Part shown: in pieces, positions 3,767 through 64,000 of the stretch
Layout: every line of letters starts with the position of its first letter
How positions within the stretch are numbered: the first letter of the stretch is position 1
Source: Okamejei kenojei
Lineage: Eukaryota
NCBI GenBank assembly: GCA_035221665.1
Contig: CM069166.1
Span: 9,238,001-9,302,000 of the forward strand
Direction: 5' to 3'
DNA: 64,000 nucleotides
Position numbers and translations under genes: made by a program
The notes under the pieces: model-generated
Seen by the model: the letters and a program-made list of their open reading frames with translations, nothing else
Databases searched by the model: none
Told to the model about the DNA's origin: nothing

Positions 3767-4010
3767 CTGTTGGGGGAGTCCAGAACCAGGGGCCACAGTT
3801 TAAGAATAACGAGTAAGCCATTTAGAACGGAGACGAGGAAATGAATTCTCTGTCTCAGAGGATGGTGGAGGCAGGTTCTCTGGATGCTTTCAAGAGAGAG
3901 GGCTCTTAAAGATAGCGGAGTCAGGGGATATGGGGAGAAGGCAGGAACAGTGAATGGCGGTGCTGGCTCGAAGGGCCGAATGGCCTCCTCCTGCACCTAT
4001 TGTCTATTGT
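3767..4010 (+). mobile_element. CR1 LINE 3' end (internally deleted)
   Basis: RTRGHSLRI-type ORF2 terminus and the conserved GAAGGGCCGAATGGCCT 3' hairpin, followed by a CTATTGT tail. Confidence 0.8.
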
Positions 4011-4109
4011 CTCTCCCCCCCACCATCTCTGTACACACGGAGGCCCCCTTGTTGGGGGAGGGGGGGGACACACACACACACACTCTCACAGGGGGGGGGG
4101 GGGCACACG

Positions 4110-4550
4110 TGATGCACGCGCACGGCGGCTAACGGTCGCGGCGGTTTGAAAGGCGGCCGTTTAACCGTCCCCGCCGCCCGTACCTTGAGGCGGACGAAGC
4201 CGTGAGTCCCCAGCGACGGGTCGCTGAGGCAGGCGGGCGGGCTCTCCCGCACCCGCCACTCGAAAGCCCGCCGTCGCTTCTTCGCCACCACCACGGCGGC
4301 CCGCAGCAGGACGACGGCGCAGATGACCGCGGTCAGCGTGTGGACGGCCAGCCAGCCCAGGGCGGCCAGCACAGCGCGGGTGGGCAGCAGCAGCAGACGC
4401 CGCCAGCGGGGCCGCAGCGTCGCCATCCCCGCTCCGAGTCCCGACTCCGCTCCCCCTCCCCCCTCACAAACCCATTGGCTGGCGCGCCCGCCACTCAGCG
4501 GTGGGCGGGTCGTGGCCGCAGGTGAGGCGGGGCTCAGGTGAGCGGAGGCT
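4110..4550 (-). promoter_or_regulatory. CpG island and compact promoter of the EPHX gene
   Basis: Very GC/CpG-rich stretch in an AT-rich window. Minus-strand AGCCAATGG (CCAAT box, 4474-4478) and GC boxes (GGGCGG about 4503, GAGGCGGGGC about 4524) lie just upstream of the ATG. Confidence 0.65.
4184..4426 (-). CDS. EPHX3: Epoxide hydrolase 3/4-family gene, coding exon 1 (N-terminal membrane anchor)
   Basis: ATG at 4426 in context GGGATGG. Encodes MATLRPRWRRLLLLPTRAVLAALGWLAVHTLTAVICAVVLL...PPACLSDPSLGTHGFVRLK then AAG|GTAC donor. PPACLSDPSLGTH is typical of EPHX3/4. Confidence 0.9.
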
Positions 4551-4574
4551 CCAAAGGTCATCAGGGACTCATAC

Positions 4575-5096
4575 ATAGAAACATAGAAAATAGGTGCAGG
4601 AGCAGGCCATTCGGCCCTTCGAGCCTGCACCGCCATTCAATATGATCATGGCTGATCATCCAACTCAGTATCCTGTACCTGCCTTCTCTCCATACCCCCC
4701 TCCCATCTCTTTAGCCACATCCAACTCTCTTAAATATAGCCAATGAACTGGCCTCAACTAGCTTCTGTGGCACAGAATTCCAGAGATTCACCACTCTCTG
4801 TGTCAAAAATGTTTTTCTCATGTCGGTCCTAAAAGATTTCCCCCTTATCTTAAACTGCAACCCCTTGTTCTGGACTTCCCCAACAATCTTCTTGCATCAA
4901 ACCTGTCCAACCCCTTAAGAATTTTGTAAGTTTCTATAAGATCCCCCCTCAATCTTCTAAATTCTAGCGAGTACAAGCCGAGTCTATCCAGTCTCTCTTC
5001 ATATGAAATTCCTGACATCCCGTGGATCAGTCTGGTGAACCTTCTCTGTACTCCCTCTATGGCAAGAATGTATTTCCTCACATTTGGAGACCAAAA
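4575..5096 (-). mobile_element. CR1 LINE 3' end
   Basis: ORF2 C-terminus IEGVQRRFTRLI...SYEERLDRLGLYSLEFRRLRGDLIETYKIL; 3' hairpin and ATAGAAAC tail repeats. Confidence 0.92.
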
Positions 5097-13614: not shown

Positions 13615-13683
13615 TCAGAAGAGATTCTCTTCAAATATTGCCATTAAGTCGCTCTGAAAATTCATGTCAATCGTAGCCGCCAT
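13615..13683 (-). CDS. BRD4: BRD4 terminal coding exon (C-terminal P-TEFb-interacting motif)
   Basis: tttag|ATG; encodes MAATIDMNFQSDLMAIFEENLF*, nearly identical to the mammalian BRD4 C-terminus. Confidence 0.97.
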   Translation of the reverse strand: MAATIDMNFQSDLMAIFEENLF

Positions 13684-14880: not shown

Positions 14881-15169
14881 TGCTTCCTTCCGCCTTCGTT
14901 CTTGCTCCCGCTTCCTTGCTAGCTCTCGCTGCTGATCCAGCATTGACTGTGAGNNNNNNNNNNNNNNNNNNNNNNNNNNNNNNNNNNNNNNNNNNNNNNN
15001 NNNNNNNNNNNNNNNNNNNNNNNNNNNNNNNNNNNNNNNNNNNNNNNNNNNNNNNNNNNNNNNNNNNNNNNNNNNNNNNNNNNNNNNNNNNNNNNNATGC
15101 TGCTGCTGTCTTCTCACCTCCTCGTGAGCCCTCCGAGCACACTCCAAAGCATCCTCCTCATCCCGACTT
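14881..15169 (-). CDS. BRD4: BRD4 penultimate coding exon (contains the N-run)
   Basis: (R)SRDEEDALECARRAHEEVRRQQQH-[N]-SQSMLDQQRELARKREQERRRKEA; ccag acceptor and GTAAGT donor. Confidence 0.93.
14954..15096. other. Undetermined sequence (143 N) inside a BRD4 coding exon
   Basis: Run of N at the position of the Gln-rich tract. Confidence 0.99.
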
Positions 15170-16437: not shown

Positions 16438-16664
16438 CGCTGTCTCTCCTGCTCCATGCGGAGACGCTCCTTCTCCGCTGCCTCGTGTTGCATCTTGCGG
16501 TACTCTTCCTGTGCTTTAAGCGCCTTTTCTCGCTCCTCTTTCTCTCGCGCCGCTCGCCTAAACTGCTCAAAGCTATCGCTTGATGATTTTGCCGTAGATG
16601 AGGGAGTGGAAGGAGTCTTCTTAACAAGACTTGCCCATGATCCCATGTTCTTGATCTTGAGATC
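16438..16664 (-). CDS. BRD4: BRD4 coding exon with non-canonical GC donor
   Basis: [52 protein letters not shown]...EQERQ(R). 227 nt; only CG|GCAAGT keeps frame with the next exon. Confidence 0.93.
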
Positions 16665-17615: not shown

Positions 17616-17746
17616 CTTTTTGGGAGCCACAGGAGTTTTGGGCGTCTGTTGTTTATGTTTGTCTTTGTCCTGAGGAGAAGGCTGCGAGCTGTGTTCCGGA
17701 GGCCGAATCACTGGCCCAGCAACTTCCATCTGCTTCATCTCCGCCC
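17616..17746 (-). CDS. BRD4: BRD4 coding exon
   Basis: 131 nt; (R)AEMKQMEVAGPVIRPPEHSSQPSPQDKDKHKQQTPKTPVAPKK; cag acceptor, GTGAG donor. Confidence 0.93.
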
Positions 17747-18225: not shown

Positions 18226-18391
18226 TGTGACCAAGATGTGGAGGTGGTTTGTTTCCCTCCCTCGGCTTTGATGGCTCCTGGCGCATTGAAGGACTAAATG
18301 GCTCATTTTTGATTACGGGTGAAGAGTGACTCTTCTCTTCTTTCACGTGCACCATCGGTTGCGACTGTACTATTGACGGTGTTCGGGGTTC
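18226..18391 (-). CDS. BRD4: BRD4 coding exon
   Basis: 166 nt; [55 protein letters not shown]; cag acceptor, GTAAGT donor. This frame is not in the ORF track. Confidence 0.92.
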
Positions 18392-20897: not shown

Positions 20898-21004
20898 CTG
20901 TTTCTTAATCTGTACATTTCTTGGTGGTGACTGGACAAGGGATGGAAATTGTGGCAGTGGTGGAGAATGCATCAGGAGCGGAGAAGACACATCTGTCATA
21001 TGAG
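20898..21004 (-). CDS. BRD4: BRD4 coding exon
   Basis: 107 nt; (A)HMTDVSSPLLMHSPPLPQFPSLVQSPPRNVQIKKQ; phases fit both neighbours. Confidence 0.9.
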
Positions 21005-21895: not shown

Positions 21896-22489
21896 CTGTG
21901 GAGTAGGGATCAGGTTTTGGCTGCCGTGGGGAGTGGTGATGCTGAATGACTTGCTGAGGTTTTGCCTGCGGGGGAGGTTGGTGGGGAGGCTGCGGGTGCT
22001 GGATGTGTGGTGGAAACTGCATGGGCTGCATGTGAAGTGGCCTCGGCTGCTGCTGCTGCTGCTGCTGTTGTACCTGCTGTTGGGAAAGAGGCTGAGGCTG
22101 GGGATGTGGCACAGCCTGAATGTGGGGTGGAGGTTGGGGCTGTGCGTGAGATACCTGGGGTTGGCTGAGGATCGTCTGGGGCAGGGGCAGGGGCAGAGGC
22201 TGGGGCAGGGACGCAGTCTGCACCGTTGAGAGAAGCGGGGTGTGACTCTGGGCCTTTTGCAGCTGTTGCAGATACAGGTGCATCTGAGAAGTATGTAGGG
22301 GGATTGAGAGATGAGATGGTAGTTCTTCCTCTTCTAGAATAGCTGGCGGCTGAGTCATCTGTGGGGGCTGTAATATAGGCTGTGGGACCATGGGCGGGGA
22401 CTGTGCAAGAGGACGAGGCTGTTTGGGAGGTAATGGTGCCGCTTTACCACTGGGTCTGGATGGCTGTTGAGGCAAACTACTGTGCAAGG
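21896..22489 (-). CDS. BRD4: BRD4 large Pro/Gln-rich exon
   Basis: 594 nt; (A)[22 protein letters not shown]...[10 protein letters not shown]...[23 protein letters not shown](G/A); poly-U AG acceptor, GTAAG donor. Confidence 0.96.
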
Positions 22490-24294: not shown

Positions 24295-24535
24295 CTGGTG
24301 GAGACACCACCGAATGCTGGGTGAGGTGAGGGGGCGAATGTTGTTCGGGTGGTGGCGGCAAATGCGTCTGCAGCTCGCTTTGGTGAGGAAGGTGCATCAT
24401 GGGTTGTCCAAAGTGCGGCATGGCATCATAGGCATTGGTCAATATCTGTGGCTCCATGATTGGAAGGGGAGTAGGTACAAACTGTGGAGGTGATTGCTTC
24501 ATCGGCTGTGGAAGCTGATGGTGGTGGTGATGTTG
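24295..24535 (-). CDS. BRD4: BRD4 poly-His/Pro exon
   Basis: 241 nt; QHHHHHQLPQPMKQSPPQFVPTPLPIMEPQ...EQHSPPHLTQHSVVSPP; strong polypyrimidine acceptor. Confidence 0.94.
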
Positions 24536-26898: not shown

Positions 26899-26960
26899 CT
26901 TCTTTTGCTCCCGTCCAGAGCGACTCTTGTGGCTGCCATGTTTGGTTTTAGGTGGCACCT
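26899..26960 (-). CDS. BRD4: BRD4 first long-isoform-specific exon
   Basis: 62 nt; (E)VPPKTKHGSHKSRSGREQKK, matching mammalian EMAPKSKKKGHPGREQKK; AG/GTAGG; phase 1 to 0. Confidence 0.9.
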
Positions 26961-36500: not shown

Positions 36501-36709
36501 TTTGAATTAACCAAGTTAATTGTGCTGATTATTCAAACCACTATTATCTTCTTGCAAAAATGTACTCTTAAAAACAAAATTGACGCTTGAACTTGCCTCA
36601 GTTTTTAGTCATTGGACTTAAATGACTTAATTTAAATTGGATTTGTCTGCACTCAAGCCACAAGTTTAGCCTTGACAGTATCTTCCAGCAACATGGCAAA
36701 TGTCCAACT

Positions 36710-38140
36710 AGTCAACCAATCCCTGCAAACCTGTACTGTCCCTGCCTGCTGCAAAGTCTCCACTATTGTCCCTGTACCCAAAAAGACAAGGATTACTGGT
36801 CTTAATGACTACAGGCCTGTCGCACTGACCTCTGTAGTCACGAAGACCCTTGAAAGACTTGTACTGGCCAAGCTGAAAAATATCACAAACACCCTGCTGG
36901 ACCCTCTGTAGTTTGCATATCAGGCCAATCGATCAGTGGATGAAGCAGTCAACCTAGGCCTGCACTTCATCCTCCAGCACCTAGACCACCAGGGACCTAT
37001 GCAAGGATTTTGTTTGTTGATTTTAACTCTGCATTCAACACTATTTTGCCAGAGCTACTACACTCCAAACTCTCCAAGTTGACTATGCCTGAACCCCTCT
37101 GTCAGTGGATCACCAACTTCCTGTCACACAGGAAGCAGAATGTGAGGCTGGGAAAGCACGTCTTGGACCCTTAGACCTTCAGAATAGGAGCACCGCAAGG
37201 CTGCGTACTATCTCCTCTCCTTTACTCTCTCTACACCAACGACTGCACCTCCACAGACTCCTCTGTCAAGCTTCTCAAGTTTGCGGACGACACAACCCTG
37301 ATTGGACTGATCCAGGATGGGGAGGAATCTGCTTACAGACAGGAAGTGATACGGCTGGCGTCCTGGTGCCTTCGTAATAACCTGGAGCTCAATGCTCTTA
37401 AGACAGTGGAATTGATAGACTTTAGGAGAACTCCCCCTCCCCTCGTCCCACTCACCATCAACATCACAGTCACATCTGTGGAGTCTTTTAAGTTCCTTGC
37501 AACCATCATCTCCAAGAACCTGGAATGGGTGGCCGCCATCGACTACACAGTAAAAAGGCCCAACAGAGGTACATCCTGTGGCAGCTGAGGAAACACAATC
37601 TGCCACAGGCAATGATGGTCCAATTCTATTCTGCCATCATAGTCTGTCCTCACCTTCACCATCATGGTCTGGTTTGGCTCAGCCGCCAAGCACGACATCC
37701 GAAGGCTGCAGTGAATCGTCCGATCAGCTGAGAAGGTTGTTGGCTGCAACCTCCCCCCCCCCCATTGATGAACTGTACACTGCAAGGGCCAGGAAGCAAG
37801 CGGGCAAGATCATCTCTGACCCCTCTCACTCTGGCCACTAACTCTTTGAAGCACTTCCCTCTGGAAGGCGACTCCGGACTGTCAAAGCCGCCACAGCCAG
37901 GCATAAAAACAGCTTTTTTCCCCCACGAGTAGTAGCTCTACTCAATAACCAAAAGTCTGTAGCCTCATTTTGCTCTGGTATTTTATTTAATTCACATGTT
38001 TAAACTCTGTTTTATTATTAATGTTTTATGTGTCATTCTTAATTGTCACTGTTTGTCGTGTTGTTACTTGCGAGCGGAGCACCAAGGCAAATTCCTTGTA
38101 TGTGTGCATACTTGACCAATAAACGTATTCATTCAATCAA
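36710..38140 (+). mobile_element. Rex1/Babar LINE, 5'-truncated RT pseudogene
   Basis: [68 protein letters not shown] motifs with stops and frameshifts; AATAAA plus ATTC-repeat tail. Confidence 0.92.
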
Positions 38141-47300: not shown

Positions 47301-47638
47301 TCTCTGTTGAAGCTGCTTTCTAATTTAAGTGCAACTTAAGCTCTTTTTATGGCTTTCAATGGTCACTGTCAGCATTATTGCACTTTTTATATGCAGCTTA
47401 AACAGACTAGCGCTAGAATTTCTTCCAGACATGTTGTTCTTTTAACACAAGGAACTACTGGTAAAAAGCTCCATTAATCTGGCAAACTGTATGTATTGCA
47501 GTGATAATTAGAAGTCACTGGTTGTCGGTTGGAAACTACGATGGGTGGTTTACAGAGAGTACGTGGGGCAGAGGGGAAACAGACTTTGCCAGCGCCAGGC
47601 TAGCAACAGGCTCAATTACTGAAAGAATTGACGCTAAC

Positions 47639-47761
47639 CTGTTTCAGAGTCGTTGCTCTCAGAGGAGCTGGAGTCACTGCTACTGTCTGACTCAGAAGAA
47701 CTGCTGCTGCTTCTCATCCTTGAAGGGCCTCCCACATCCATGCTTACGTCATGCTTCTCAG
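47639..47761 (-). CDS. BRD4: BRD4 SEED (Ser/Glu/Asp-rich) exon
   Basis: 123 nt, phase 1-1; (A)EKHDVSMDVGGPSRMRSSSSSSESDSSSDSSSSESNDSET, matching mammalian [37 protein letters not shown]; tacag acceptor, G|GTTAG donor. Not in the ORF track. Confidence 0.92.
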
Positions 47762-48324
47762 CTGTACAAAGAGAATTATTGTGTAAGTAACAGGACTAAG
47801 TAATCTGCTAAACATCAATACTGAAACTAACTGGCTTATCTACAGTTTTAAGTTGCAATTTATCTTTGGGTTTTGTTGATTACTATCAATTATGGGCACT
47901 ACTTAAGACAATGTTGTACATTAATACATTACGAAGGAGTCTCAATTCTTACTTAATCTATTCTTAAAATGATTTAAACAAGTTCAATAATTGTCATTTC
48001 AACTCAATTTGTAGAATCAGCCAAAATGAAGTTAAACTGGTTAACCTCTAACTGTTCAAGTTAATTAGGTGTCAAACGCAATTTACTGCAAACCACCATC
48101 AGGGCACATATGAGCAAATGGACTCAATTCATAACGCTACTTCTCCCTGTAGAACATTACACAAACACTCATTTCATAACAAGCAAATTAAACATATTCT
48201 GTGTTAAAGAATGAAACTCTAAAATATTTAACCGATGGATAATTTAATAGTTTTCTCCTAATATAAGTGGATAGATAATAATAATTAAAGAAACAACAGA
48301 TGTATGACAAGGTCTATCACAAGG

Positions 48325-48865
48325 AAATTCAGTTCTGCTGCAATGTGATAATTGCGTTCAAACAAAATCTCGTGTCACAGAAAATCACGTTTTTAAAACA
48401 ATGTTGACAATGGAGAAAGGAGGGTCTGGGGCAAGAGCGTTTTAGATTCACAATAACCAAGTTACAAATGTGGGACATTTTAATATTGAAAACATTTTGA
48501 ATATTGAATGTTGAAAATATTAAAGTATCATAGAATGTCAATTTCAATGGATTTCAATATCATAGGATTATTTGTCAATTTCAATGGGTATCTGAGGTGA
48601 AACTTGAAAACTGTTCTTAAGACACAACGGCGTCTGATTATTGCAGGGAAGTTATGTGGAAACAGCAGACTATTTTTATTTTCCCCAAAGGGGCTTTCTT
48701 TTTCTGCATGTCAATTTCCAAAGTAACTTTTTAAGTGGTTCTCTAGTTCCCCATACAAATCATATAATAAAGTCAGCCTGTATAAAACTAATAATGTTCC
48801 CCAACTCATCAATTGTGTTCCATCCACTGAGTGGATGAAACACACGTTATAGCAGAATGACTTAC
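48325..48865. mobile_element. Old Tc1/mariner-like MITE (second copy at about 57700-58510)
   Basis: Ends GTTCTGCTG.AA.G.G / CG.T.TAGCAGAA; internal TGTCAATTTCCAAAGTAAC and TAATGTTCCC shared between the two copies. Confidence 0.55.
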
Positions 48866-49399
48866 ATTCACATTAAAGTTATTAATTTAAGCACAAGTTC
48901 AAATTCCGGGCTTATTGGATTCAATCATTGGAGAGTGCTTTTGAATCCTCCTCGTGGACGAATGAGGTCAAGGTTAAACACTGAGAATTATATTTAGGGA
49001 CTGGCCACATTGCAATTTATTTTCATACTTTGAATCAAAATGATTTTAGCAACGCACTACCCAGGTCCAATACAGCAACTTATGAGTCTTGATATTCCAG
49101 CAGCTTCATGAGCATTCATTTAGGGCAATCAAGTGTGCATGAGGAAGCTATGCTGAACCAACCCGAATGTCTTCACTCAATATAAAGCGACGATGAGCTC
49201 CTACTTTACCGCAGCCATCATACTTAGATTACTTAGAGCATTAAGAAAATTTTATTTTGACATACCTTCCCACTTAATTTAGTTTGCTTTACAATTTTGA
49301 CAAATACATTTTTTAATTCATTTCACACACATTCCACAATAACTAACAATTGTTACATTAATATGAATAAAGATTAGTCAACTGTTACATTAATATGAA

Positions 49400-49499
49400 T
49401 CAGTCTGAAGAAGGGTCTCGACCTGAAACGTCACCCATTCCTTCCCTGCAGAGATGCTGTCTGACCCGCTGAGTTAACCCAGCATTTTGTGTCTACCTT
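49400..49499 (+). mobile_element. Penelope-derived pLTR fragment with minimal hammerhead core
   Basis: CAGTCTGAAGAAGGGTCTCGACCTGAAACGTCACCC; TGAATCA on both sides. Confidence 0.72.
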
Positions 49500-50073
49500 T
49501 GAATCAAGATTAAGAGAGCAGGAGAGCACCCAGTCCCTCCAACAAGTTCATATTATTGCTTAATAGAATTAGTTTATTATTTTGTTTACACCAGCTCGTA
49601 AACCACATCCATGAAAATAATTTGGATGGGGATTCTGTGCATTCGATATACAAGGATATCCATGTCCCTTTGACTGCTTAAAAAATTCAGCATTTCTGAT
49701 TTTTCTACCAAAGCAGATAAGCACACATTTTTACACTTCCTATTCCAACTGCCAAATTACTTTGCTTGAGTCTATCACTTCTTCACATCCTCAGCACAAC
49801 TCACATCCACACTATTTAGTGTCATTAGATATGTTACATTTTGTCCCCTTGACTAAAGTGTAAAATAACAATTGTGGAAATTTGGGACCAAAGCTCCAAT
49901 TCCCATGGCACTCAATGAAAGGGAACAATTTATACCCACTGTGTTTTTTGCTGTCCAACTCTCAATTCAAGCTAGTCTATTGCTCCCAATTCCACGTGCT
50001 CAAACCTTTTTCGCCAACCCATTGAGTGGAAATCAGAAGCCTTCCAAAAATGCAAATGCCCAAATCACATCAA

Positions 50074-50384
50074 TCACGGTGGCACAGCGGCAGAGTTGCT
50101 GCCTTACAGCACTTGCAGCGACGGAGACCCGGGTTCGATCCCGCCTACGGGTGCTGTCTGTAGGAGTTTGTACGTTCTCCACGTGACCGCGTGGGTTTTC
50201 TCCGAGATCTTTGGTTTCCTGCCACAATCCAAAGACGTACAGGTTTGTGGGTTAATTAGCTGATATAAGTGTAAATTGTCACCAGTGTGTGTAGGATAGT
50301 GTTAATCTGCGGGGATTGGACTCGGTGTCGATGCGGACTCGGTGGGCTGAAGGGCCCGTTTCCGCCCTGTATTTCTAAACTAAA
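50074..50384 (+). mobile_element. HE1-type tRNA SINE, near full length
   Basis: A box TGGCACAGCGG, B box GGTTCGATCCC, central core, CTAAA tail. Confidence 0.88.
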
Positions 50385-51509
50385 TCTATACTAGATATTT
50401 CAAAACATTATGGAGTACAGAGGCAAATAATTAAATGATGGATCTTTGTCCCAAATATTATGGATGGCACTGTATATATCATCTTTATATATTATTCATT
50501 TTCAGGCATATTAACTCCATCTGTAAATTTCTATACTAATGTATTTTAGTTCCTCATTTGCATTGGACCCACAATATTTCTGGAAGATTTTTCATGTCCA
50601 TGACATCAAAATATTTGCTGAATTTGCCATTTCCGTATCCCCCCCCCCCCCCCCCCCAAGGAGCTAAACATTTCCAATTCAGATGAAATAATAGTAAAAT
50701 AGATAGAGGTTAATGTATGTGTGAAAAAAATGATTAAAAAAGTCAGGAGTTCACACAGTTGCACCACAGTTTGTGCACGTGCTGCGTAGCTCTGGCAAAA
50801 TAATTATTCATCATCTGAAGTTGTCTTCATTTAATCTCTTGTTAATTTTCATGAATTATAGATTTCTGTACATAATTTAAGTAATATATGGGTCTGAAAT
50901 CAAGAAGTGAGTAGATAATAGGGCAGTTTAAATGGTGGACATCACTGGAAATAGCCTGGTATTTTGTCCTATAGCTTCCAAACATAACTTTTCTCGGAGA
51001 CAGTTCATGTCATTTATTACTTAATGTAACAGAATTCAGGACTCTAATCATTCCCTTACTGCACCCACTCACATTGAAGTGAACAGTGGAACATAAAGAA
51101 CATTGTCTCCATTTATTGTTATCATGTTATAAACTTAAACAGGCCAGAAATTGTCCTTGAATCTACGTGAGCACAGTATAAGCATAATTGACTGCTAGAT
51201 GCAAGTAAGGCATAGGCCCAAATATCAGGTTACAGACAAGGCAATACTCATCAATAACATAATCTGATAAGGTAGTGCTGGCAATTCATGGAATTTACAA
51301 ATTTGTCCTTCAGCCTAGACAAGCTATGAATGATTTGCTGTCTCAAAAGTAACTTCAGGCAAAGTTCATTAGCCAGCAGTTCATTTCTTCTTCACAAGAG
51401 ACATAGATTTTCGCTGGTGAAACATTCACAGACGATGATTTGTGCAGGAGTAAATATTAATGAGTATTTATTTTTGTGTACTGACCAGGGTGTATACTTT
51501 TCTATGGTA

Positions 51510-51628
51510 CGAGTGTGGGAGGAAACCGAAGATCTCGGTGAAAACCCACGCAGGTCATGGGGAGAACATACAAACTCTGTACAGACAAGCGGCCGTAGTC
51601 AGGATCGAACCCGGGTCTCTGGCGTTGT
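51510..51628 (-). mobile_element. HE1-type SINE fragment
   Basis: GGAAACCGAAGATCTCGG...CAGGATCGAACCCGGGTCTCTGGCG, as in 33380-33475. Confidence 0.75.
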
Positions 51629-52029
51629 TAGGGAGTACCCACGTTCTTCTACTTTTCCCAATGATTATTGGATAATCATACCTGGCCATAATTAGCACCC
51701 CAAAAGTAATCTCAAAGCAATGACACAAATTCTTGCCCCACATTGATTCATGCGTTGCGAAAAACACAGCAACTGGACTCCTGCTTTTTATCTATCCATT
51801 TCCCATGTCAGACTACACACATCTGTCACAGATGCAGAACATTGCTAAACAATGAAAATTAATGGCTTGAAATGTACAACTTGTTGCAACTATTGCCAAC
51901 TGTCATTTTCAGCAACTACTACATCTGAACTAAACAGCAGGGGCCCAAATGAAGCAAGTCAAGCTAATGGTTAAACACAGCTAGTCCAGACTTAAAATGC
52001 ACGTGAGGCAGACTTTGAGAGACTTATTG

Positions 52030-53177
52030 TGTAAAAATGAACTGCAGATGCTGGTTTAAACCGAAGATAGACACAAAAAGGTGGACAGCTAACTTAGCGG
52101 GACAGGCAGCATCTCTAGAGAGAAGGAATGGGTGACATTTCAGGTCGAGACCCTTCTTCAGACTGGTTAGGTATAAGGCAAACGAGAGATATAGACGGTG
52201 ATGTGGAGAGATAAAGAACAATGAATGAAAGATATGTAAAAAATAACGGTGATAAAGTTTGTAGGGTGAAAATGAAAAGCTAGTGCGACTGGGGGGGGGG
52301 GAAAGAGAGAGAGGGAGAGAAAGAGAAAGAGAAAGAAAAAAGAGAAAGAGAAAGAGAAAAAGAGAGAGAAGTTTGAAGTGAAAGAAATCAATATTCATAC
52401 CACTGGGCTGTAAGCTGCCCAAGCGAAATATGACATGCAGTTCCTCCAATTTGCGTTTAGCCTTACTCTGTTCTCTGTCATTGTCAGAGTGAGGCTAAAT
52501 GCTGTTTCCTTTACTATCTTTACTTTTTTGCATATCTTTCATTCATTGTTTTTTATCTCTCCACATCACCGTCTATATCTCTCGTTTCCCTTAGTACCAG
52601 ACTGATTCCTGGGATGGCACGACTTCCATATGAAGAAAGACTGGATAGACTTGGCTTGTACTCGCTGGAATTTAGAAGATTGAGGGGTGATCTCATAGAG
52701 ACTTACAAAATTCTTAAGGGGTTGGACAGGCTAGATGCAGGAAGATTGTTCCCGATGTTGGGGAAGTCCAGGACAAGGGGTCACAGTTTAAGGATAAGGG
52801 GGAAGTCTTTTAGGACCGAGATGAGAAAATCATTTATCACACAGAGAGTGGTGAATCTGTGGAATTCTCTGCCACAGAAGGTAGTTGAGGCCAGTTCGTT
52901 GGCCATATTTAAGAGGGAGTTGGATGTGGCCCTTGTGGCTGAAGGGGTCAGGGGGTATGGAGAGAAGGCAGGTACAGGATACTGAGTTGGATGATCAGCC
53001 ATGATCATATTGAATGGCGGTGCAGGCTCGAAGGGCCGAACGGCCTGCTCCTGCACCCAATTTCTATGTTTCTATGTTTCTATCCCTAACCAGTCTGAAG
53101 ACCCAAAATGTCACCCATTCCTTCTCTCCAGAGATGCTGCCTGAACCGCTGAGTTAATCCAGATTTTAGTGTCTACA
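52030..53177. mobile_element. Penelope-like element 3' end with inverted pLTR, interrupted by CR1
   Basis: Minus-strand GIY-YIG terminus KLEELHVIFRLGSLQPSGMNIDF (about 52385-52455); inverted copy of the 3' region at 52520-52592 and 53084-53177; 12-bp TSD AGAGACTTATTG at 52018-52029 and 53178-53189. Confidence 0.85.
52595..53083 (+). mobile_element. Young CR1 LINE 3' end nested in the Penelope element
   Basis: Open ORF2 terminus (track ORF 52614-52985) and TTTCTATG tail repeats. Confidence 0.93.
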
Positions 53178-54409
53178 AGAGACTTATTGACAGGAGAGCA
53201 AGGGTCAGGAAGAAAAACGTACCTTTCAAGGTGAGGATCATGAGTGATTAAGATGGAAGACGTTAAGAGAACAGATAGCTGTTCATAATGGCAACATTTC
53301 TATTTGCAGGGGTTAGGAGATCAATGGAACAAAATGTTAGTTTATGTGCAGATCTTCCATAAAACTTCCAAACCGTGTGTGACGTGTTTAGTCATGACAA
53401 AGTAGAGTTAAGAAGAATATTCAGTAACATGAACAGTGACTGTGCAGATCCCTGGATTTGTTTGACTACATTAAAGATATTAGAGAATTTTCAAAGATTA
53501 CTTACATATTATTACTTTGGATTTCACCTTACCCAATGGTTATTGATTTAACATACATCATGATACTCAAAATGATGGCATAGTCCCATGTACTTTAAAC
53601 TATTGCAGTCCTGCTTTCTCTTCCTAGCTATCATTTTCAAAATCTTTGATGGTGCTTTAAAAAAAATCTCTGATGTTTTATTCTTTTTAGAATTTACCTT
53701 CCCTGAGAAATTGCTTGAACAAATTCTCTAGTTAAATCTCCAAATATTGAACTGTTCATTTTTATCTGACCCTATGCTATTAACAAAGTATCTAAAGCAC
53801 TTTCAATCAGCTGGCACTGGAGACTCACATTAACACGGTCTCTTACCACAATATTCCTTTATATAACCAGGCAAAAGTCAACGGGAGGGACAAGAAATAC
53901 GGCAACCAGAAAAACTTCACTTCCACATAAGATACCTTACAACATGGTAATCAAGAAAACTTAACCAAAGAACAAGGAGGATTATGCTTTCGTACATTAA
54001 TATATTTCTTAAATAACTGATTTTAAAAATATTTGCATCATTCCATTCAATGACATAAAACACGCAAGACCATTTTACTTTCACTTAATTAGTTGTTAAG
54101 TATAACAATAGCTAAAAACGTAGCATTACAGTGTGGTTCCACCCTCATTGTTTGAGCATAATCATGATTTAAAACATTTATCAACACTGGACATACTACA
54201 GCCAAGCACTATTATAGCTTTCTGGGTTTCAGTAGGAATAACTGTACTGAGATCTAGAGTACAAGACCATTCCAACTTACCCACACCACAAAAAACACAA
54301 GGCCTTAGGGCAGAGAGGCAATTGCTGCATCCATATCATCATCCATGCTGATACAAAATTGTTCAGCTCAAGCATGGAACGAAACCCAAAGGAAAACCTT
54401 TTTATTTTT

Positions 54410-55745
54410 TTGAGAGGCCAGGATTTATTGTCCATCCCAAAATACCTTTGAAGATGAGGAGGTGAACAAGTATTTTGAACTGCTTCAGAGATTTTGGTGA
54501 AGGAACTCCATTTTTGACGATGACTACCAGGATTTAGAACCAGCAATGATGAAATAATAGCAATACACTTCCAAATCTGAATGATGTGCAGTACAAAGGG
54601 GAAACTGCACATGCTAATGTCCCATATGCCTAACGTCCCTATTCTGCTTGGTGATGAGAGGTTTTTGGCTTGGGAAGACCTTTCCTCGTGGTCCCGATGA
54701 AAAACTGCAGTGCATTTGTGGATGGCACATGGCGCAGCCACCGATCCAGGAAAGGGAGAGAAGTCCAACACACTCCCGAATTGCGATAAGGCTTCAGGAG
54801 ATGATTAGTTCACTGAAAGATAATCGTATCTTGAGCTGGTCTCATAACCACATTATTGATGTGGCTGGCTCTTTTGATCAATGGTTGTGAGTGGAGTCAC
54901 CAAAGTAAAACCAAACTTGGGCAGCAGCCATTTATCGGCACTGTTAATTAAAGATTGAGAGTAGGCAGTAATGTGAAATCGTATTTCTTTTTGTGAACGG
55001 TATATGTGGTCATTTTGCCACAAGATCAAGCAGATACCAATGTTGCATCTGGACCAGTCTGAAGAAGGGTCTCGACCCGAAACGTCACCTATCTCCTTCG
55101 CTCCTTAGATGCTGCTGCACCCGCTGAGTTTCTCCAGCTTTTTGTGTACCCTCGATTCTCCAGCATCTGCAGTTCCTTCGTTAACACTTTACTCCACTGC
55201 GATATCTCCTCAAGGTATGCCTACTTTGAAGAAGTTCTCCTCCTCCCTACTAAAAACACCAGTCTGAAGAAGGGTCTCGACCTGAAACGTCGCCTATCTC
55301 CTTCGCTCCTTAGATGCTGCTGCACCCGCTGAGTTTCTCCAGCTTTTTGTGTACCCTTGCATCTGGAACAGCTTGGCTGGAGACAGTTCATCAACTGCAG
55401 TTCTACAATGAGGAGAACTGGAGCCAGCAGCCTTTATTATAGCCATTGTTCTCGGTGAGTTTCATGTCATATGAAGTGAATCAAATAGATTGAACACGTC
55501 TTCTGTGAAGGTTTGACCATGAAAAGTATCATTATCAATGGCAAAGGCATTGGCCTCTTCTTCAGCACTAACGTACTAGCTGCCCACCATTGTCAAGAAT
55601 GGGGATATACTATGAGCTGTTGTTGCATCCCAATAGCATCTTCCTGTCCACCACCATTCGTGACTAAATGTGTTTGGATTGCAAAGATTTGATCTGATGG
55701 TTGAGAGACTGCTTACTGCATGCTGTCTAACAAATAAGTAGTGTT
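54410..55745 (-). mobile_element. Old degraded LINE fragments
   Basis: Pattern resembling common elasmobranch LINE sequence on the minus strand; no intact frame; family not determined. Confidence 0.4.
55054..55356 (+). mobile_element. Retrozyme-like non-autonomous Penelope derivative: 1.5 tandem copies of a 205-nt unit, each with a minimal type I hammerhead core
   Basis: Direct repeats start at 55054 and 55259 (CCAGTCTGAAGAAGGGTCTCGACC(C/T)GAAACGTC); 11-bp TSD TTGCATCTGGA at 55043-55053 and 55357-55367. Confidence 0.75.
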
Positions 55746-56039
55746 TTGTTGCAGCTTCAAGTCAGAACCATACAAACATCAAGGAATCTCAAAATTGTCG
55801 TAGTCTAGGTTTTCATTTAAAACTAATTCTTGTTTTCTTTAAGGAGTAAATTTATGGCCCACAACATTTTCACCCAAGACCATGAGTGTACAATTCATTT
55901 CAGTGTCTTCATGCTCAGTGGGAAGTGTTGCATCAGTTGCAAAGTGGCCAGGTTTCATCTCATTATTGCATTCCAGTAAACAGAATGAAAAAGACCAACA
56001 AATGTTGCCAGTGCATTAGATATCCAAAAATCACTTGGC

Positions 56040-56760
56040 ATTGATCATCTGACTGAATGGTACCAGAAAAACAACCTTGCTCTCAACATCAGTAAAACTA
56101 CGGAAATGATTGTTGGCTTTTGAAGAAGCAGGTGAGGATGCATGAACCTGCCTTCATCGACGGTCAGTTGTGGAGAGGGTCAATAACTTCAAGTTCCTAG
56201 GTTTGCATATCTCTGAATATCTGCCCTGGACACAGTACATTGATACAATCATAAAGTAAGCCCATCAATGCCTCAACTAGCTTAGAAGATGGAGGAGTTT
56301 CAGAACGTTGATGAATACTCTCTTGAATTTCTACAGCTGTATGGTAGAGCGCATATTGACTGGTTGCATCACTGCCTGGTTTGGCAACTCAAACGCTCAG
56401 GAACAAAGGAGATAAAAAATGGTGTATACTGACTGCCCAGTCCGTCAAAGGTACTGACCTTCCCACCATCAAAGGGTTCTTCTGGAGGTGCTGTCTGAAA
56501 AAGGCAGCCAACATCATCAAGAACCCACACCACCCTACCCATACTCTCATTTCACTCCTGCCATCAGAAGGTAGTACAGGATCCTGCAAACTGTAATGTC
56601 CACACCCAAGTACAGCTTCTTCTTTAACTTTTTCTTTGTGTTTGTTTATTATATTATCTATTGAGTACTGTGCTTAGAAACCTATTGTGCTGCTGCTGCA
56701 AGCAAGAATTTCATTGTTCCATTTTGGTGCATATGAAAATAAAACACTCTTGACTTCTGA
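56040..56760 (+). mobile_element. Degraded Rex1/Babar LINE 3' part
   Basis: NNLALNISKTTEMIV, VERVNNFKFLG, LKKAANIIKNPHHP remnants; AATAAAACACTCTTGACTT tail. Confidence 0.8.
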
Positions 56761-57994
56761 CTTGAATATCATTGCAATTGAGTATCGTTAAAACTTGTAA
56801 AAACATTAATGCCAATGTGTTGCAAAATGAATCACAGCCTTCATGCTTGTGAAACTTAAATTATGCAATACTTCATGCACTGGATTTAATTCGAAAATGC
56901 CACAAATTACACAGAATTTTGCAATATTGCAGCTGTTCGTATAAGACAGTTTCGTAAGAAACCAGTGTCTCGATCTCTCAAATACTCTACAAACACGGAT
57001 GTGATTCTGTGGCTGTGTGGAATGCCAAAATCTGGCATTAACTGTACACTCTTATCTACAGAAGAGATAAACCTCAACCTTCAAAAGTGAGCGTGTCCAC
57101 ACAGCAGTGATAACTGGGAACAATTAAAACAGTCAGGCCTTTCAGTAGCTTGTTACCAGCCATTTGCATTGAAATGCCCAATCATTTGAGAGATTGGGAT
57201 GAGAGAGGGGGAGGGAGGAAAAGTGATGTTTCACCATTCCATGCAAGTTTAAATTTATCAACATCAAAAGATGAGGCAAAATCCATCGTATCACAAAGAC
57301 TTCAAACATGACATAAGAACATTCATGAACCACTCAGCTTATAAACCTATTTCCTCAATAAGATGATCAAGGCTAATATTTTCCTCAGTGTCAGCTTCTG
57401 GAATTAAACTCATTTCATTTACTTTCCTTAATATATTGACTTCTATCGTGAATATTTATAGCAACTGAATCTCATAAGTTCCTTGTATAATTAATTCCAA
57501 AGATTCATCCTCAGTGATGAAATGTCTTATTTCAGTCCAGAACGGCCAACATCTGAAATTGAAACTGTAATCTTTGGTTCCAGATTTCTAGCCATGCAAA
57601 CATTATCCTTGCATCAACCCGTCAACCTCCTTTACAGTTTTCTATGCTTCAATGAGATCTCCTTTAATACTATAGATAAGTCTGCTTAATCTCTACATAT
57701 ACAGAAAGTTCTGCTGTAAAGCGATAGTTGTGTTCCTAAGAAACCTTGGGTTATAGAAAATTGAGTTATTAAAAACTATTGGGTTAATGGGGTGAAAAGT
57801 GAGCTAGGGGCTGGGGAGGTTAAGACCAACAATTAGTTATTTTTCCCCATACAGAGTTTTCAAAAAGATTTTTCTAATAGCTGTAATTTTATTTTTGTTA
57901 CTGAAAGCTGTATGTAACATTGTTTAATAGAAGTCAATATATTAAGGAAAACTCATTGCACAAGTGTCAATGGAAACGATTGTTTGTCAATTTC

Positions 57995-58229
57995 GTAGTC
58001 AGGAACGGAAGATGCTGGTTTACATCGAAGATGTAAACCAGTAAACCACAAAATGCTGGAGTAACTCAGCGGGACAGGGAGCATCTCTGGATAGAAGGAA
58101 TGGGTTGATGTTTCAGGTCAAGATCGTTCTTCAGTCTGAAGGGTCTCAACCCAAAATGTCACCCACTCCTTCAATCCAGAGATGCAGCCTGTCCTGCTGA
58201 GTTACTCCAGCATTTTATGTCTAACTTGC
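57995..58229. mobile_element. Penelope-derived palindromic mini-element nested in a MITE
   Basis: Inverted arms around CTTCAGTCTGAAG; 11-bp TSD TTGTCAATTTC at 57984-57994 and 58230-58240. Confidence 0.8.
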
Positions 58230-59448
58230 TTGTCAATTTCTCAAGCCACTGGCCTCTGTTCTTACAAGACAATGATTACAACGGGACAGTTACATAGAAA
58301 GTATTTGTCCCTTCGATTTCTCTCCCCCCGCTTTGTCTCTGCTTGTCAATTTCCAAAGTAACATTAGTTCCCTCATTTCTGATCAAAATTGTATTATTAC
58401 CAATTTGGCCCACATAATACAGTAATGTTCCCTAATTCCTCAATGATGTTACACCCAATTAGAGATACGAGTTTATGAGTTACAACATGTGTTGTAGCAG
58501 AACAACCTGGAGAACAAACTTCACCCAAATATATACTGGTTTGGTAATGAGAAAGAATGCGCTGTCCACAATTTTGCTTTCTGGGACAGTAGGGGGAAAG
58601 AGGAACATGTACGTGTTATCAAATTTGTGGCTGCCACATGTATTAAATTGGTGCCTTTGATATCCATTTTAATATCAAGTCCTCAAATTATTAGTTATTG
58701 GGTTCAGTGTACAAAATTAGAGAAAAGACAGGAGAAAATACAACTATAATCCCATTGCTCTGGTCTGAAAATGTAAATGAGAGAATCATGCTCTCACTTT
58801 TACCAGTGCATCTCTGGCTTCCTGTTTTAATGTTAAACATTTCCATACAAACAATTTTCCATCAGCAGAATTTACGACAATTCAAAGAAGTAATTGTTAA
58901 TTTCATATGCTACATTCACGGCAAGAAATAATGATCTGGAAGAAGCAGCATTGAAATTGATTTCTCATCATAGGCAGAATACAGGACCACATAGAACTCA
59001 ATTTGCAGCAAAGCTTCGAAAAGGAAAAAAAAAGAAAAAAAATCACATCTTACCCACTGCCTACGGTTGCAGTGATTTCCTGCAGTTCACATCCAGATTA
59101 AACAAATAAGACCGTTTCAATCTATTAAATCACAAATACTGATGAAATCACCACCATACCTCTCAACTGTATGCTTTTTAAAAAAATTACTGTGACGCAA
59201 TATAAAGCTGCACACATAGAAATAGCAGCCAAATGAAACCAATCAAAATCAGGCAATTTACAAATGCTACCAAAAGCCGCATTCTTCTGAAAGCATAAAC
59301 CAGAATTCTGCCAATAAACGCATTGCAGTTTGAGAGGTATGTGCACCACAAAATTAAAGCCGTTACAAATACGTACAAATTTATTTTAACCTTGGCCCCA
59401 ACCTAGGATAACCTAAGGGTCTACTTCACAAGGTTGCACTACACCAAC

Positions 59449-59568
59449 CTTTTATGCCTGGTTTCTTCCCAGTGCTCAGCTGGCCGCTAACGTCATGTAA
59501 CCTGGTATCCAGCTCACTCTTCGAGTCTAGCTGGAGGTCATCGTTCGATTTCCCTGGGACTTTTTTCA
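59449..59568 (-). CDS. BRD4: BRD4 post-ET exon homologous to the BRD2/BRD3 coiled-coil exon
   Basis: 120 nt, phase 1-1, tttgcag acceptor and G|GTTGGT donor. xKKVPGKSNDDLQLDSKSELDTRLHDVSGQLSTGKKPGIK aligns with BRD3-type [31 protein letters not shown] and joins in frame to the SEED exon. Not in the ORF track. Upstream ET and bromodomain exons were not found in the window. Confidence 0.85.
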
Positions 59569-62319
59569 CTGCAAACAGCATCACACAACAAGATTTGGAC
59601 CAAACACTTTGGTACCATTATACAGGTACAACACAGTGAATAAAAATGACTCTAATTTTGCACATGGGATCAGATGCAAATTGAAGGAAGGAAAAGCAGC
59701 TAAAGGAAAAAAAGGATCCATTCATTGTTTGCAACTTAAAAGGCCAATAATCTAAAAGAGAATTTAGCAAATGTTTGGAAGCATGTAGCGAGGTCATGAT
59801 AATTTTGTTTTGTGAAACATAAACCACATTTAAAAAATACTGAAGTATATAGAATGCACAATTCAATTTATTGCCAAAAACATTCGAACCAAAGAGCTGC
59901 TCAGACGATCAGACCAGAGGGAAAGGGAGTGAGTGTTAAAAAACATTCCTGGCCACTGATTATAAATAAGTCAAATTTAGAAAAAAAAAACATAAAAGGC
60001 ACATGAATTGTGAGGAATAAAAAAACAATTTTTACTTTAACCAAACTTGGACCAAGTTAAATTTCATTTGAACCACTTGCACTCATAGTAAAAGGCTAAT
60101 GGTTGAAGCAACTGGTCAAAGTTTTTCAACTTTCCCAAACCATATACTAGCTGCCATGACAACCAGAGATTTGCTACGGCAACAGTGGAAGTATCCAGTC
60201 TTTTCCTTCAGCATGGTTAGCATTATAATGAGTTATATGACCCCAAAAAATAGTGTTTCAGTGCACCACTTTCTTTCTCATTTTTTTTGCTATGAGAAAT
60301 ATTACCTAAAATATTTTTCCCCCATAAAGATTTACTTTTATATCATGACGTCACTACTGAAATTCACGATGTTTGCCAAATTCAAAATAAATTTAACTGG
60401 AGAAGCCAAATCTGGTTCAAGATTAAAAAGAAAACAGTGTACCTCTGAAAACCAGCTGTTGCTCTGATCTCTAGGTTAAGCAGTCCCAAAGATGTAAATA
60501 CCCAACCTGTGTGTGCCCATTCACAAGTCCAATGATGCTGTGACAGTGTAGATCATTTAACAATGATCACATATCCAAAGTAAACAGAAGATGATTGTTG
60601 TCATAAAAACTGAACATTACAAATGTCTTCCAACAAAAAAAATGCAGAACAAACCACCCAAATCAGGGCCTGTTCATGGTGCATAATGAAAACATCATAC
60701 ATACATCCTCACTGGAATCAGTGAACTAATTGGTTATTTATCTCATTTGCAACTACCAAGTTATCAAAATACATTGAAGCAGATTATCTACTCTGAAGTT
60801 AATACAGCAAGTCCTCCCCCCCTCCCCCCCCCCATCACCATACAAAAATCCTACAAATTTGAATATCAATAGCTTCTGCAACAAAGAATAAAATTCGTAT
60901 ATGTACAGGCAGAGAAATTTGTGTTCAATTTTACACGTTTCTGGACTGATTGAGGGAAAAATTAAGTACGATAAGTATCTGGATCTAATCTAGACCTTAC
61001 ATATGCGTTCAAGTTAGATACTAAGAGCATGCAAATTCAGATATTTATGTCATTGTTTCAAGGTTAAATTACCAGCACAGAAAACAGTTACAAAGCAACT
61101 GGTCTAAGTTTCTCAACTTTCCTGAAGCATTTCATTAGACAGTATATTTTTATGTACAATGGCAGGCATGCTCCTGGCATTTAGAATTTAGAAAATGAAA
61201 CTGTCCAAATCAGAGCAAGTTTTCAAGGAATGATGATGCAGAAAAATTGTCCATAATTCTTCTAATTTAAGGATAAACTAGTTGTTACTCAAATTGTAGT
61301 TTAGTACATTAAATAATGCTAAAGCAGAATAGGATGTGTTTTACAGGGGAGGACAGGTGGCCAAAACAAATATGGTTGATTTTGCTTAAATCCAAGATTG
61401 CCAAAAAGTGTATTTACAATCATATCCTAAGAATTGAAAGCTAATATTAAGGATAGTAATGTATTGATTCTACCCAATCCCATACAGCAAACCCCCGATA
61501 GGCCCACAAAGACCAGAGTACCTACTGTATATATGATTAGCACTGGTAACATGGACATTCCTAATGCTGTAAATGTACATCAGCCAGGCTTACCTGGAGG
61601 ACCACATTGTGGGTCTGGCTAAGACTTCACTAAAGTCAGTTCAACTGCACCTGAATTGGGCAAGGGTTGGTCTTGTTAAAAATTTATTCTCAGAATCATA
61701 GTATTTTGATGTATAATGTGAGCAAGCCGGAATACTGGGGCAAAGTCTAAGAGATTAGGTAATCTCAAATATCTTGATAATCAAATAAAGCCAAGTCAAT
61801 CTATGCAATATGTTTGGCCCACATACGAGTTCCTGACAATGTATCATCCCTATCATCGAGATCGGCTATCACCACCAGTTTGAGATCCACCCATGATGAA
61901 ACATGCCCTTCCATCTGGGTCAAGAACCCTCAGGATTTTACATTGCAATCAAGTCTCACTCTTCTAAACTCCAGCAGATGCAAGCCAAGCCTATCCAACC
62001 TCATTTTAAATATTTGTCTCAAAAACCTCTCTAAGCTGCTTAACATTCTTAATTTCATAAGTTTACTAATGCTGTATGTGTGCTCCAGATGTAGTCCAAT
62101 AGCCAATGTAATGAAGCATGAACTTTCTACTTGTGTATTCAATAACCCTCGCAATAAACATTAAGATCGTTAGCTTTTCTAATCACTGAGTGCTGGCATA
62201 TTAACCTTTTGAAAAATAATGCACGAGTTCACCCCGATGCCTCTACTGACAGCTGTACTTTTAGACATCTTGGCATCATGCTCCATAATTCTCCTCCTCG
62301 ATAAATGTCCCGTAAGTTC

Positions 62320-63360: not shown

Positions 63361-64000
63361 TTTACAATAAATGTGCCTCGACTTGAATTTCCGCAAATGA
63401 AACCCAACCTGAAGCTTGGGCCTGAAGTAAACCTGGCATTTCTTTTCTTCCCTTCTTATAATGCCCATCAAGATCACTATCACACCTGTTAACATTTTCA
63501 ATTTTGCATTCTTGACTTTGAGTCCCCAACCCAACCAATTACATTCCCATCCAGCACCTCTATCATGCCATGTTGTGCAACTATCCAAGAGGACATCAGC
63601 CAGACACTTCTCTCCCTCCTTCAAGATGTTTGGGGTGGGGAAGCAGCAACCCATATTTTGTTTAAAAAGATGAGCAACTGATAAGATTTAACCTCCAAGA
63701 CTACATAATGAACAGTGGGATTCATCTAATAAACAGTTTTACCTTTAACTTTAATAGATCATCTAATACTTGGTACACATTCTACAGCTCTGACACAATG
63801 GCTTTACTGCTGTCAACGTACTTTAGGGATTTATACGCTACACAGATTTTGATCATTCAAATCAGAAACAATTTACTCTATTCAAATCAGAAACAGTTTA
63901 GTTTATTAATCAAATTAATTGAAAATTGTACTTTAACCTATTATGAATAAATATATTTGATTTCAAAGGTAACATTTTTATGCCCCGCCTCAGGATAACC

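Follow-up and report, generated by a model that had tools for sequence, protein, structure and literature searches.

The window analysed here, a stretch of 64,000 nucleotides from the genome of the cartilaginous fish Okamejei kenojei, carries on its minus strand eleven exons of a BET gene whose C-terminal half, comprising the SEED segment, a Pro/Gln region and a C-terminal motif, is colinear with BRD4 and most similar to it. The exon at the centre of this study, the putative post-ET helix ('CC') exon of BRD4 (59449..59568, minus strand, 120 nt, phase 1-1), is assigned by sequence, frame, homology and spliced contigs. It is followed, after an intron of 11,687 nt (47762..59448, minus strand) with several dispersed repeat copies, by the SEED exon (47639..47761, 123 nt, phase 1-1), which starts with Ala-Glu-Lys as in bony-vertebrate BRD4 and matches newt and lizard BRD4 at 56%. 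Further downstream on the same strand lie a 62-nt exon encoding a basic stretch (26899..26960; 80% to the Callorhinchus fragment P0121) and a 241-nt His/Pro-rich exon (24295..24535; 79-80% to Callorhinchus and 42% to gar, newt and lizard), and then four exons placed by comparison with BRD4 and by frame, namely the Pro/Gln-rich exon of 594 nt (21896..22489) and exons of 107 nt (20898..21004), 166 nt (18226..18391) and 131 nt (17616..17746). The ninth exon (16438..16664, 227 nt), supported by BRD4 protein matches and frame, has a GC donor instead of GT (16437-16436), which the frame requires. The penultimate, tenth coding exon (14881..15169, 289 nt) is Gln-rich and includes a 143-N assembly gap (14954-15096) across which the frame is kept as assembled, and the last coding exon (13615..13683) encodes the C-terminal motif of the P-TEFb-binding type and the stop codon. 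The helix exon and the ten exons downstream of it join into a chain of 709 codons whose sole stop is the terminal one, in agreement with the preliminary description of this DNA, which had placed the helix exon in frame with the SEED exon and 11.7 kb upstream of it. Among the intervening sequences, one BRD4 intron holds broken reverse-transcriptase-like frames on the plus strand (36636-37585), likely a decayed LINE, and many short dispersed repeats are found in the BRD4 introns elsewhere.

Judged from the downstream exons, the gene is very likely the BRD4 orthologue, as had been proposed. The joined exons are 52% identical to lizard BRD4 over 700 residues and 50% identical to newt BRD4, and the last exon shares 21 of 22 residues with newt BRD4 and matches the BRD4 peptide of PDB 2NNU (E 9.2e-9). 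When the ninth exon was used in a protein search, the named entries among the best 120 of 239 matches were BRD4 or hypothetical proteins, with the single exception of a cattle entry annotated as BRD2 but BRD4-like in sequence; no BRDT-named protein was among these 120. The last point bears on the alternative that the gene is BRDT, or some other BET paralogue in which helix and C-terminal motif ordinarily occur together. BRDT does unite a post-ET helix (in the accessible text of PMC11939847) and a C-terminal domain (in that of PMC8353280) in one protein, and in this respect it resembles the gene described here; the present gene, unlike BRDT, has the sequence of BRD4 and its long Pro/Gln region within ten exons colinear with BRD4, and together with the extent of the similarity to lizard and newt BRD4 this makes a BRDT assignment very improbable. 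Exons of an alpha/beta-hydrolase gene, presumably of the EPHX3/4 type, lie downstream of the BRD4-type gene on the same strand (4007-4636 and 226-723, minus; Pfam Abhydrolase_1 for 226-723). BRD4 and BRDT both adjoin a gene of this type, so the neighbour fits either and cannot separate them, and synteny was dropped as proof of BRD4.

The helix exon is read from 59568 to 59449 on the minus strand, with AG upstream and GT downstream, and contains 39 whole codons and two split codons. Its 39-residue peptide, whose reading begins at 59566, is free of stops; read in plain frame 1, the same interval has stops on both strands. The clean, symmetric 120-nt exon of the preliminary description was thus recovered at exactly its coordinates. 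The 3′ splice site (59569..59586, minus) has pyrimidines at 8 of 15 positions, the lowest count of the 11 mapped exons (9-14 in the others). The 5′ splice site (GT; 59443..59448, minus) matches the consensus at 7 of 9 positions, which is ordinary for this gene (range 6-8) and gives no support for a weak donor. A loss of GAA-type splicing enhancers is likewise unsupported, the helix exon having the highest GAA density among the 11 exons. No in-gene ET motif was found within the window, and the ET exon lies upstream, beyond position 64000; the placement of the helix after the ET domain therefore rests on homology, while on its other side the helix exon joins the SEED exon directly in contigs.

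Several comparisons support, at the level of sequence, the homology of this exon with the post-ET helix exon of BRD2 and BRD3 that had been suggested for it. The counterpart in the paralogues is the ET-adjacent coiled-coil (CC) segment of BRD2, BRD3 and BRDT, reportedly described by Werner et al. in 2020. The best match of the helix peptide among 177,635 PDB sequences is BRD2 (6CUI, residues 100-130, E 1.1e-4). A search of 1.84 billion representatives gave six matches, five of which are BET post-ET segments with 51-58% identity; the sixth, the arachnid repeat protein P0122, is a chance match and was excluded from all alignments. Four of the five BET matches are short ORFs seemingly called across genomic exon borders, and these four end their match at the same Lys-Gly (G|GT) boundary as the helix exon; two of them also have its 40-codon length. 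If these boundaries are read correctly, the shared Lys-Gly end and the shared length suggest a single ancestral exon. In the reverse direction, four paralogue exon peptides, which had themselves been found with the helix exon as query, each have their best match in the window at the helix exon (tblastn E 4e-10, 7e-10, 1e-4 and 7e-3), and the next-best place has an E value of 0.15 or worse. No Pfam family was found for the helix exon, and the ESM Atlas gave no usable match. A protein search with the helix exon alone returned four candidates, none of which scored, and this search is weak: a constitutive exon found just one Callorhinchus fragment among 16 candidates, a fragment that starts after SEED and so does not cover the helix region. 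In one sturgeon BET gene model (P0123), which served solely as a control, the ET-plus-helix block occurs twice, probably a mis-prediction. The module had been described as a mark of BRD2 and BRD3, and it is present in both; it is not exclusive to them, since BRDT carries it too according to the accessible text of PMC11939847, which makes the post-ET helix a general BET state and not a BRD2/3 speciality.

With the CC segment of BRD2, BRD3 and BRDT (PDB 6CUI) the helix exon shares its position before SEED, its length and its likely exon borders, and it differs in being part of BRD4. Compared with the long isoform of bony-vertebrate BRD4, the gene has ten colinear downstream exons, the same SEED start, the Pro/Gln region and the C-terminal motif, and it differs by 40 extra residues between ET and SEED. 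The helix motif was found in none of the 58 BRD4 sequences that cover the ET end, out of 59 listed ninth-exon matches of at least 1000 residues, and in none of 89 such sequences from 95 further cluster members, so that the combined count for bony-vertebrate BRD4 sequences with an ET end is 0/147. Across 216 fetched proteins, some of them fragments, a helix-family profile never scored above 0.6 bits, whereas a held-out BET control reached 58 bits. The preliminary description had noted the absence from mammalian BRD4; this is correct but too narrow, as the exon is also absent from gar, teleost, newt and lizard BRD4 in the same sample. The newt BRD4 cluster also contains P0146-P0150, four unrelated Cys-containing proteins of 41-45 residues, a clustering artefact; they lack an ET end and are not counted in the 89.

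The simplest reading of this distribution is a single loss in the bony-vertebrate stem. All bony-vertebrate BRD4 examined are devoid of the helix, which makes a loss after the split of cartilaginous and bony fishes likely, and a BRD4 with both helix and tail brackets the loss to the bony-vertebrate side of that split. The sample spans mammals, lizards, a newt, gar and many teleosts; the date is bracketed just loosely, because coelacanth, lungfish, bichir, sturgeon BRD4 and cyclostomes lie outside it, as does any cartilaginous-fish BRD4 covering the region. The absence from every sampled bony-vertebrate BRD4 would formally also fit a secondary gain, in which BRD4 of cartilaginous fishes acquired a copy of the exon from a paralogue. 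However, the exon has the position, phase and length of the paralogue exon, none of the five paralogue rows is much closer to it than the others (13-15 of 25 residues shared), and a single loss asks for less than a gain at precisely the ancestral site; we consider a secondary gain extremely improbable.

Retention of the exon is accompanied by a marked change in its sequence. The 25-residue core has 13-15 residues in common with each of the five paralogue rows, compared with 17-24 between one row and another, and nine of the 25 residues are new with respect to all five. Twelve of the 17 paralogue-invariant positions are kept, including the heptad residues K16, L19, L23, V26 and L30, and the C-terminal motif of the segment is unchanged. 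The earlier statement that hydrophobic positions are kept while charged residues have changed was accurate: net charge is -3 in the helix exon versus 0 or +1 in the paralogue rows, Glu-Lys/Arg pairs at i+3/i+4 number one as against 5-8, and two new S-x-x-D/E (CK2-type) motifs are present. The hydrophobic moment is 0.27 compared with 0.34-0.44 in the paralogues, with the a/d heptad residues retained, and the summed helix cost, on a helix-propensity scale, is 9.6 versus 6.4-7.3 in the paralogues. AlphaFold2 with the five-row alignment gave one helix at residues 8-31 (pLDDT 82-84), and a paralogue control gave the same 24-residue span (pLDDT 73-79). The presence of paralogue rows in the alignment would lead AlphaFold2 to lean to a helix, and a model of this kind cannot report lower intrinsic stability. 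The exon is accordingly described here as encoding a predicted amphipathic helix with an a/d heptad, which in hydrophobic heptad, C-terminal motif and predicted 24-residue length is like the CC segment of BRD2, BRD3 and BRDT.

Such a change could mean that the segment is a vestige that binds nothing, a spacer tolerated under relaxed selection and slowly on its way out. Its divergence is faster than that among the paralogues, its helix propensity is lower, and six of the nine new residues lie one third-position transversion from a paralogue residue (E to D three times, K to N, R to S and Q to H), the easiest path for drift; the changes at five of the 17 positions invariant in the paralogue rows also fit relaxed selection and in this respect count against the explanation that we favour below. 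On the other side, all heptad hydrophobic positions and 12 of the 17 paralogue-invariant positions have been kept despite the age of the duplications, which predate the jawed-vertebrate radiation according to the accessible text of PMC5133849, and in two relatives the exon is ungapped and differs at just 2 of 122 letters, on a par with the SEED exon. We therefore regard a vestige as quite unlikely.

The comparison with relatives comes from sequencing runs. Of the 24 listed runs, 20 contain 0.71-1.00 of 7 words sampled from the helix exon; they represent 11 studies and 9 coded organisms, and none of them is recorded as RNA. Four runs (X1, X5, X10 and X13) were aligned to 47500-59700. In X10, a single contig has 47639-47761 and 59449-59570 back to back (record 1711/1712), and a contig of X13 joins the helix exon to the SEED exon likewise and continues upstream for 1037 further unbroken letters. 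We infer that the X10 and X13 contigs derive from spliced RNA, because the joint is the exact predicted splice across 11.7 kb. In both, each aligned piece has 2 differing letters and no gaps (on the helix exon, 2 differences in 122 letters), and two extra matching letters show that the partner upstream of the helix exon ends in AG. In X5, which is probably DNA according to its flag, the bin depth corresponds to 122.0 letters at the depth of the SEED contig, implying that this run has the same helix-SEED contig. The helix exon is thus included in two of the four runs by displayed contig and in two of the four by inference from depth.

In the relatives represented by X10 and X13 the helix exon is as conserved as the SEED exon, and the proposal that the exon is diverging and represents an intermediate in loss receives no present support from them. 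This equality is a weak test of constraint, because the relatives may be near ones: each of the three SEED differences that were displayed is synonymous. Nor is the exon one that is never spliced in and is disrupted in related species, a circumstance that had been raised against its significance, since the X10 and X13 contigs splice an intact exon.

The evidence on skipping comes from X1. Here the start of the SEED contig lies 3 letters upstream of the SEED exon, its first letter does not match the intron, and the depths of the bins agree with a second contig that carries 122 letters of the helix exon and overlaps SEED by 27.0 letters. If words of 31 letters are assumed, such a break is expected where two upstream partners that share their three last letters converge. 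An unspliced intron as the second partner was ruled out by the lack of cover in 47907-48313 and by the misfit of the first letter, and no alternative exon with a matching donor was found in 48250-49200. P0210, an ORF from the lizard BRD4 cluster, leaves the ET exon as Pro-Gln-Gly, which agrees with an end in phase 1; given such an end of the ET exon, skipping would restore the Gln-Ala-Glu-Lys junction found in tetrapod BRD4. Of the four runs, X1 alone has a contig break at the SEED acceptor, and there was no sign of skipping in the other three. The claim that the exon can be skipped hence holds as far as its phase allows it and is hinted at by one of the four runs, but the others lend it nothing; we consider the chances evenly balanced that a skipped form exists in some samples. 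Inclusion levels in RNA are not a quantity that contig depth can give.

A stronger version of this idea is a regulated splice switch, in which inclusion would confer full BRD2/3-like activity (initiation, of the TFIID/PAF type) and skipping would give a bony-vertebrate-like BRD4. The phase 1-1 exon, its pyrimidine tract, the weakest of the 11, and the contig break and depths of X1, which fit two partners converging at the SEED acceptor, are all compatible with such a switch, and short BRD4 acquires BRD2-like activity when given the helix of BRD2 together with ET, in the accessible text of PMC8446420. The contigs of X10 and X13, however, run unbroken through the helix-SEED junction, as that of X5 apparently does, and most of the charge pairs of the helix have been lost, so that a switch of this kind is unlikely.

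The most likely reading is instead that the exon encodes an ancestral ET-helix module that is weakened but maintained and usually included. In its fuller form, to which we give somewhat more credence than doubt, this is an ancestral docking helix next to the ET domain whose binding face is kept and whose outer face is acidified, which would make the helix weaker, with partial skipping, and with loss elsewhere by a skip that became fixed. Under this explanation the BRD4 of this cartilaginous fish keeps, and in close relatives splices in, a 120-nt exon that probably goes back to the ancestral BET gene, and the predicted helix would likely sit right after the ET domain and act like the ET-CC module of BRD2, BRD3 and BRDT, as an extra, weaker docking surface beside ET for transcription cofactors. 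The heptad face and the C-terminal motif are unchanged, while the outer face has lost Glu/Lys pairs and become acidic and rich in Ser/Thr; for a helix altered in this way, folding would come about chiefly on contact with a partner, and phosphorylation of the CK2 type could modulate it. The alteration itself looks old and now stabilised by selection. Its symmetry and its poor pyrimidine tract make it probable that, in some samples, a fraction of the transcripts omit the exon. In such transcripts ET would pass directly into SEED as it does in bony vertebrates, and fixed skipping is a likely route to the clean loss of the exon in their stem.

Both the module and the gene are already known, and what is new is their combination in the BRD4 of a cartilaginous fish. 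The surprise is limited, because it is an ordinary outcome of gene duplication that a slow-evolving lineage keeps an ancestral exon, and because the two parts already occur together in BRDT. BRDT is restricted to the germ line in mammals, according to the accessible text of PMC11335234 and PMC8353280. Of the structural features that set BRD2/3 apart from BRD4, the post-ET helix is the one best mapped, according to the accessible portions of PMC8446420 and PMC11939847, and a 2025 preprint puts forward, in its accessible text, the hypothesis that BRD4 lost the initiation role of BRD2/3 after gaining its P-TEFb-binding tail (10.1101/2025.09.20.676678). A BRD4 with and without the exon, and with an altered charged face, would be a ready reagent for testing that hypothesis. 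One could go further and see in this protein a living pre-specialisation BET protein that joins an initiation-type ET-helix to an elongation-type C-terminal motif, with a tissue-regulated cassette toggling between the two states and bony vertebrates having fixed the skipped form. If so, the fixed skip would have completed the functional separation of BRD4 from BRD2/3; we hold this reading to be speculative and probably incorrect. We found no report of this exon in cartilaginous-fish BRD4 in the literature searched, which did not extend to most subscription journals, bioRxiv supplements or shark gene models, any of which may contain it; the accessible parts of PMC11335234, PMC13083254, PMC5133849 and PMC2373290 do not treat this exon in fish BRD4.

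A separate observation concerns the other end of the SEED exon. In X5, a contig of 1495 nt runs from the end of this exon past its donor at 47638 into the intron (47500-47668, minus), and reading on past the donor gives a single Gly codon and then a stop. The same kind of end is found in two gene models of lizard BRD4 (P0207 and P0209). The read-through is a candidate for a short BRD4 isoform, the status of X5 as RNA being uncertain.
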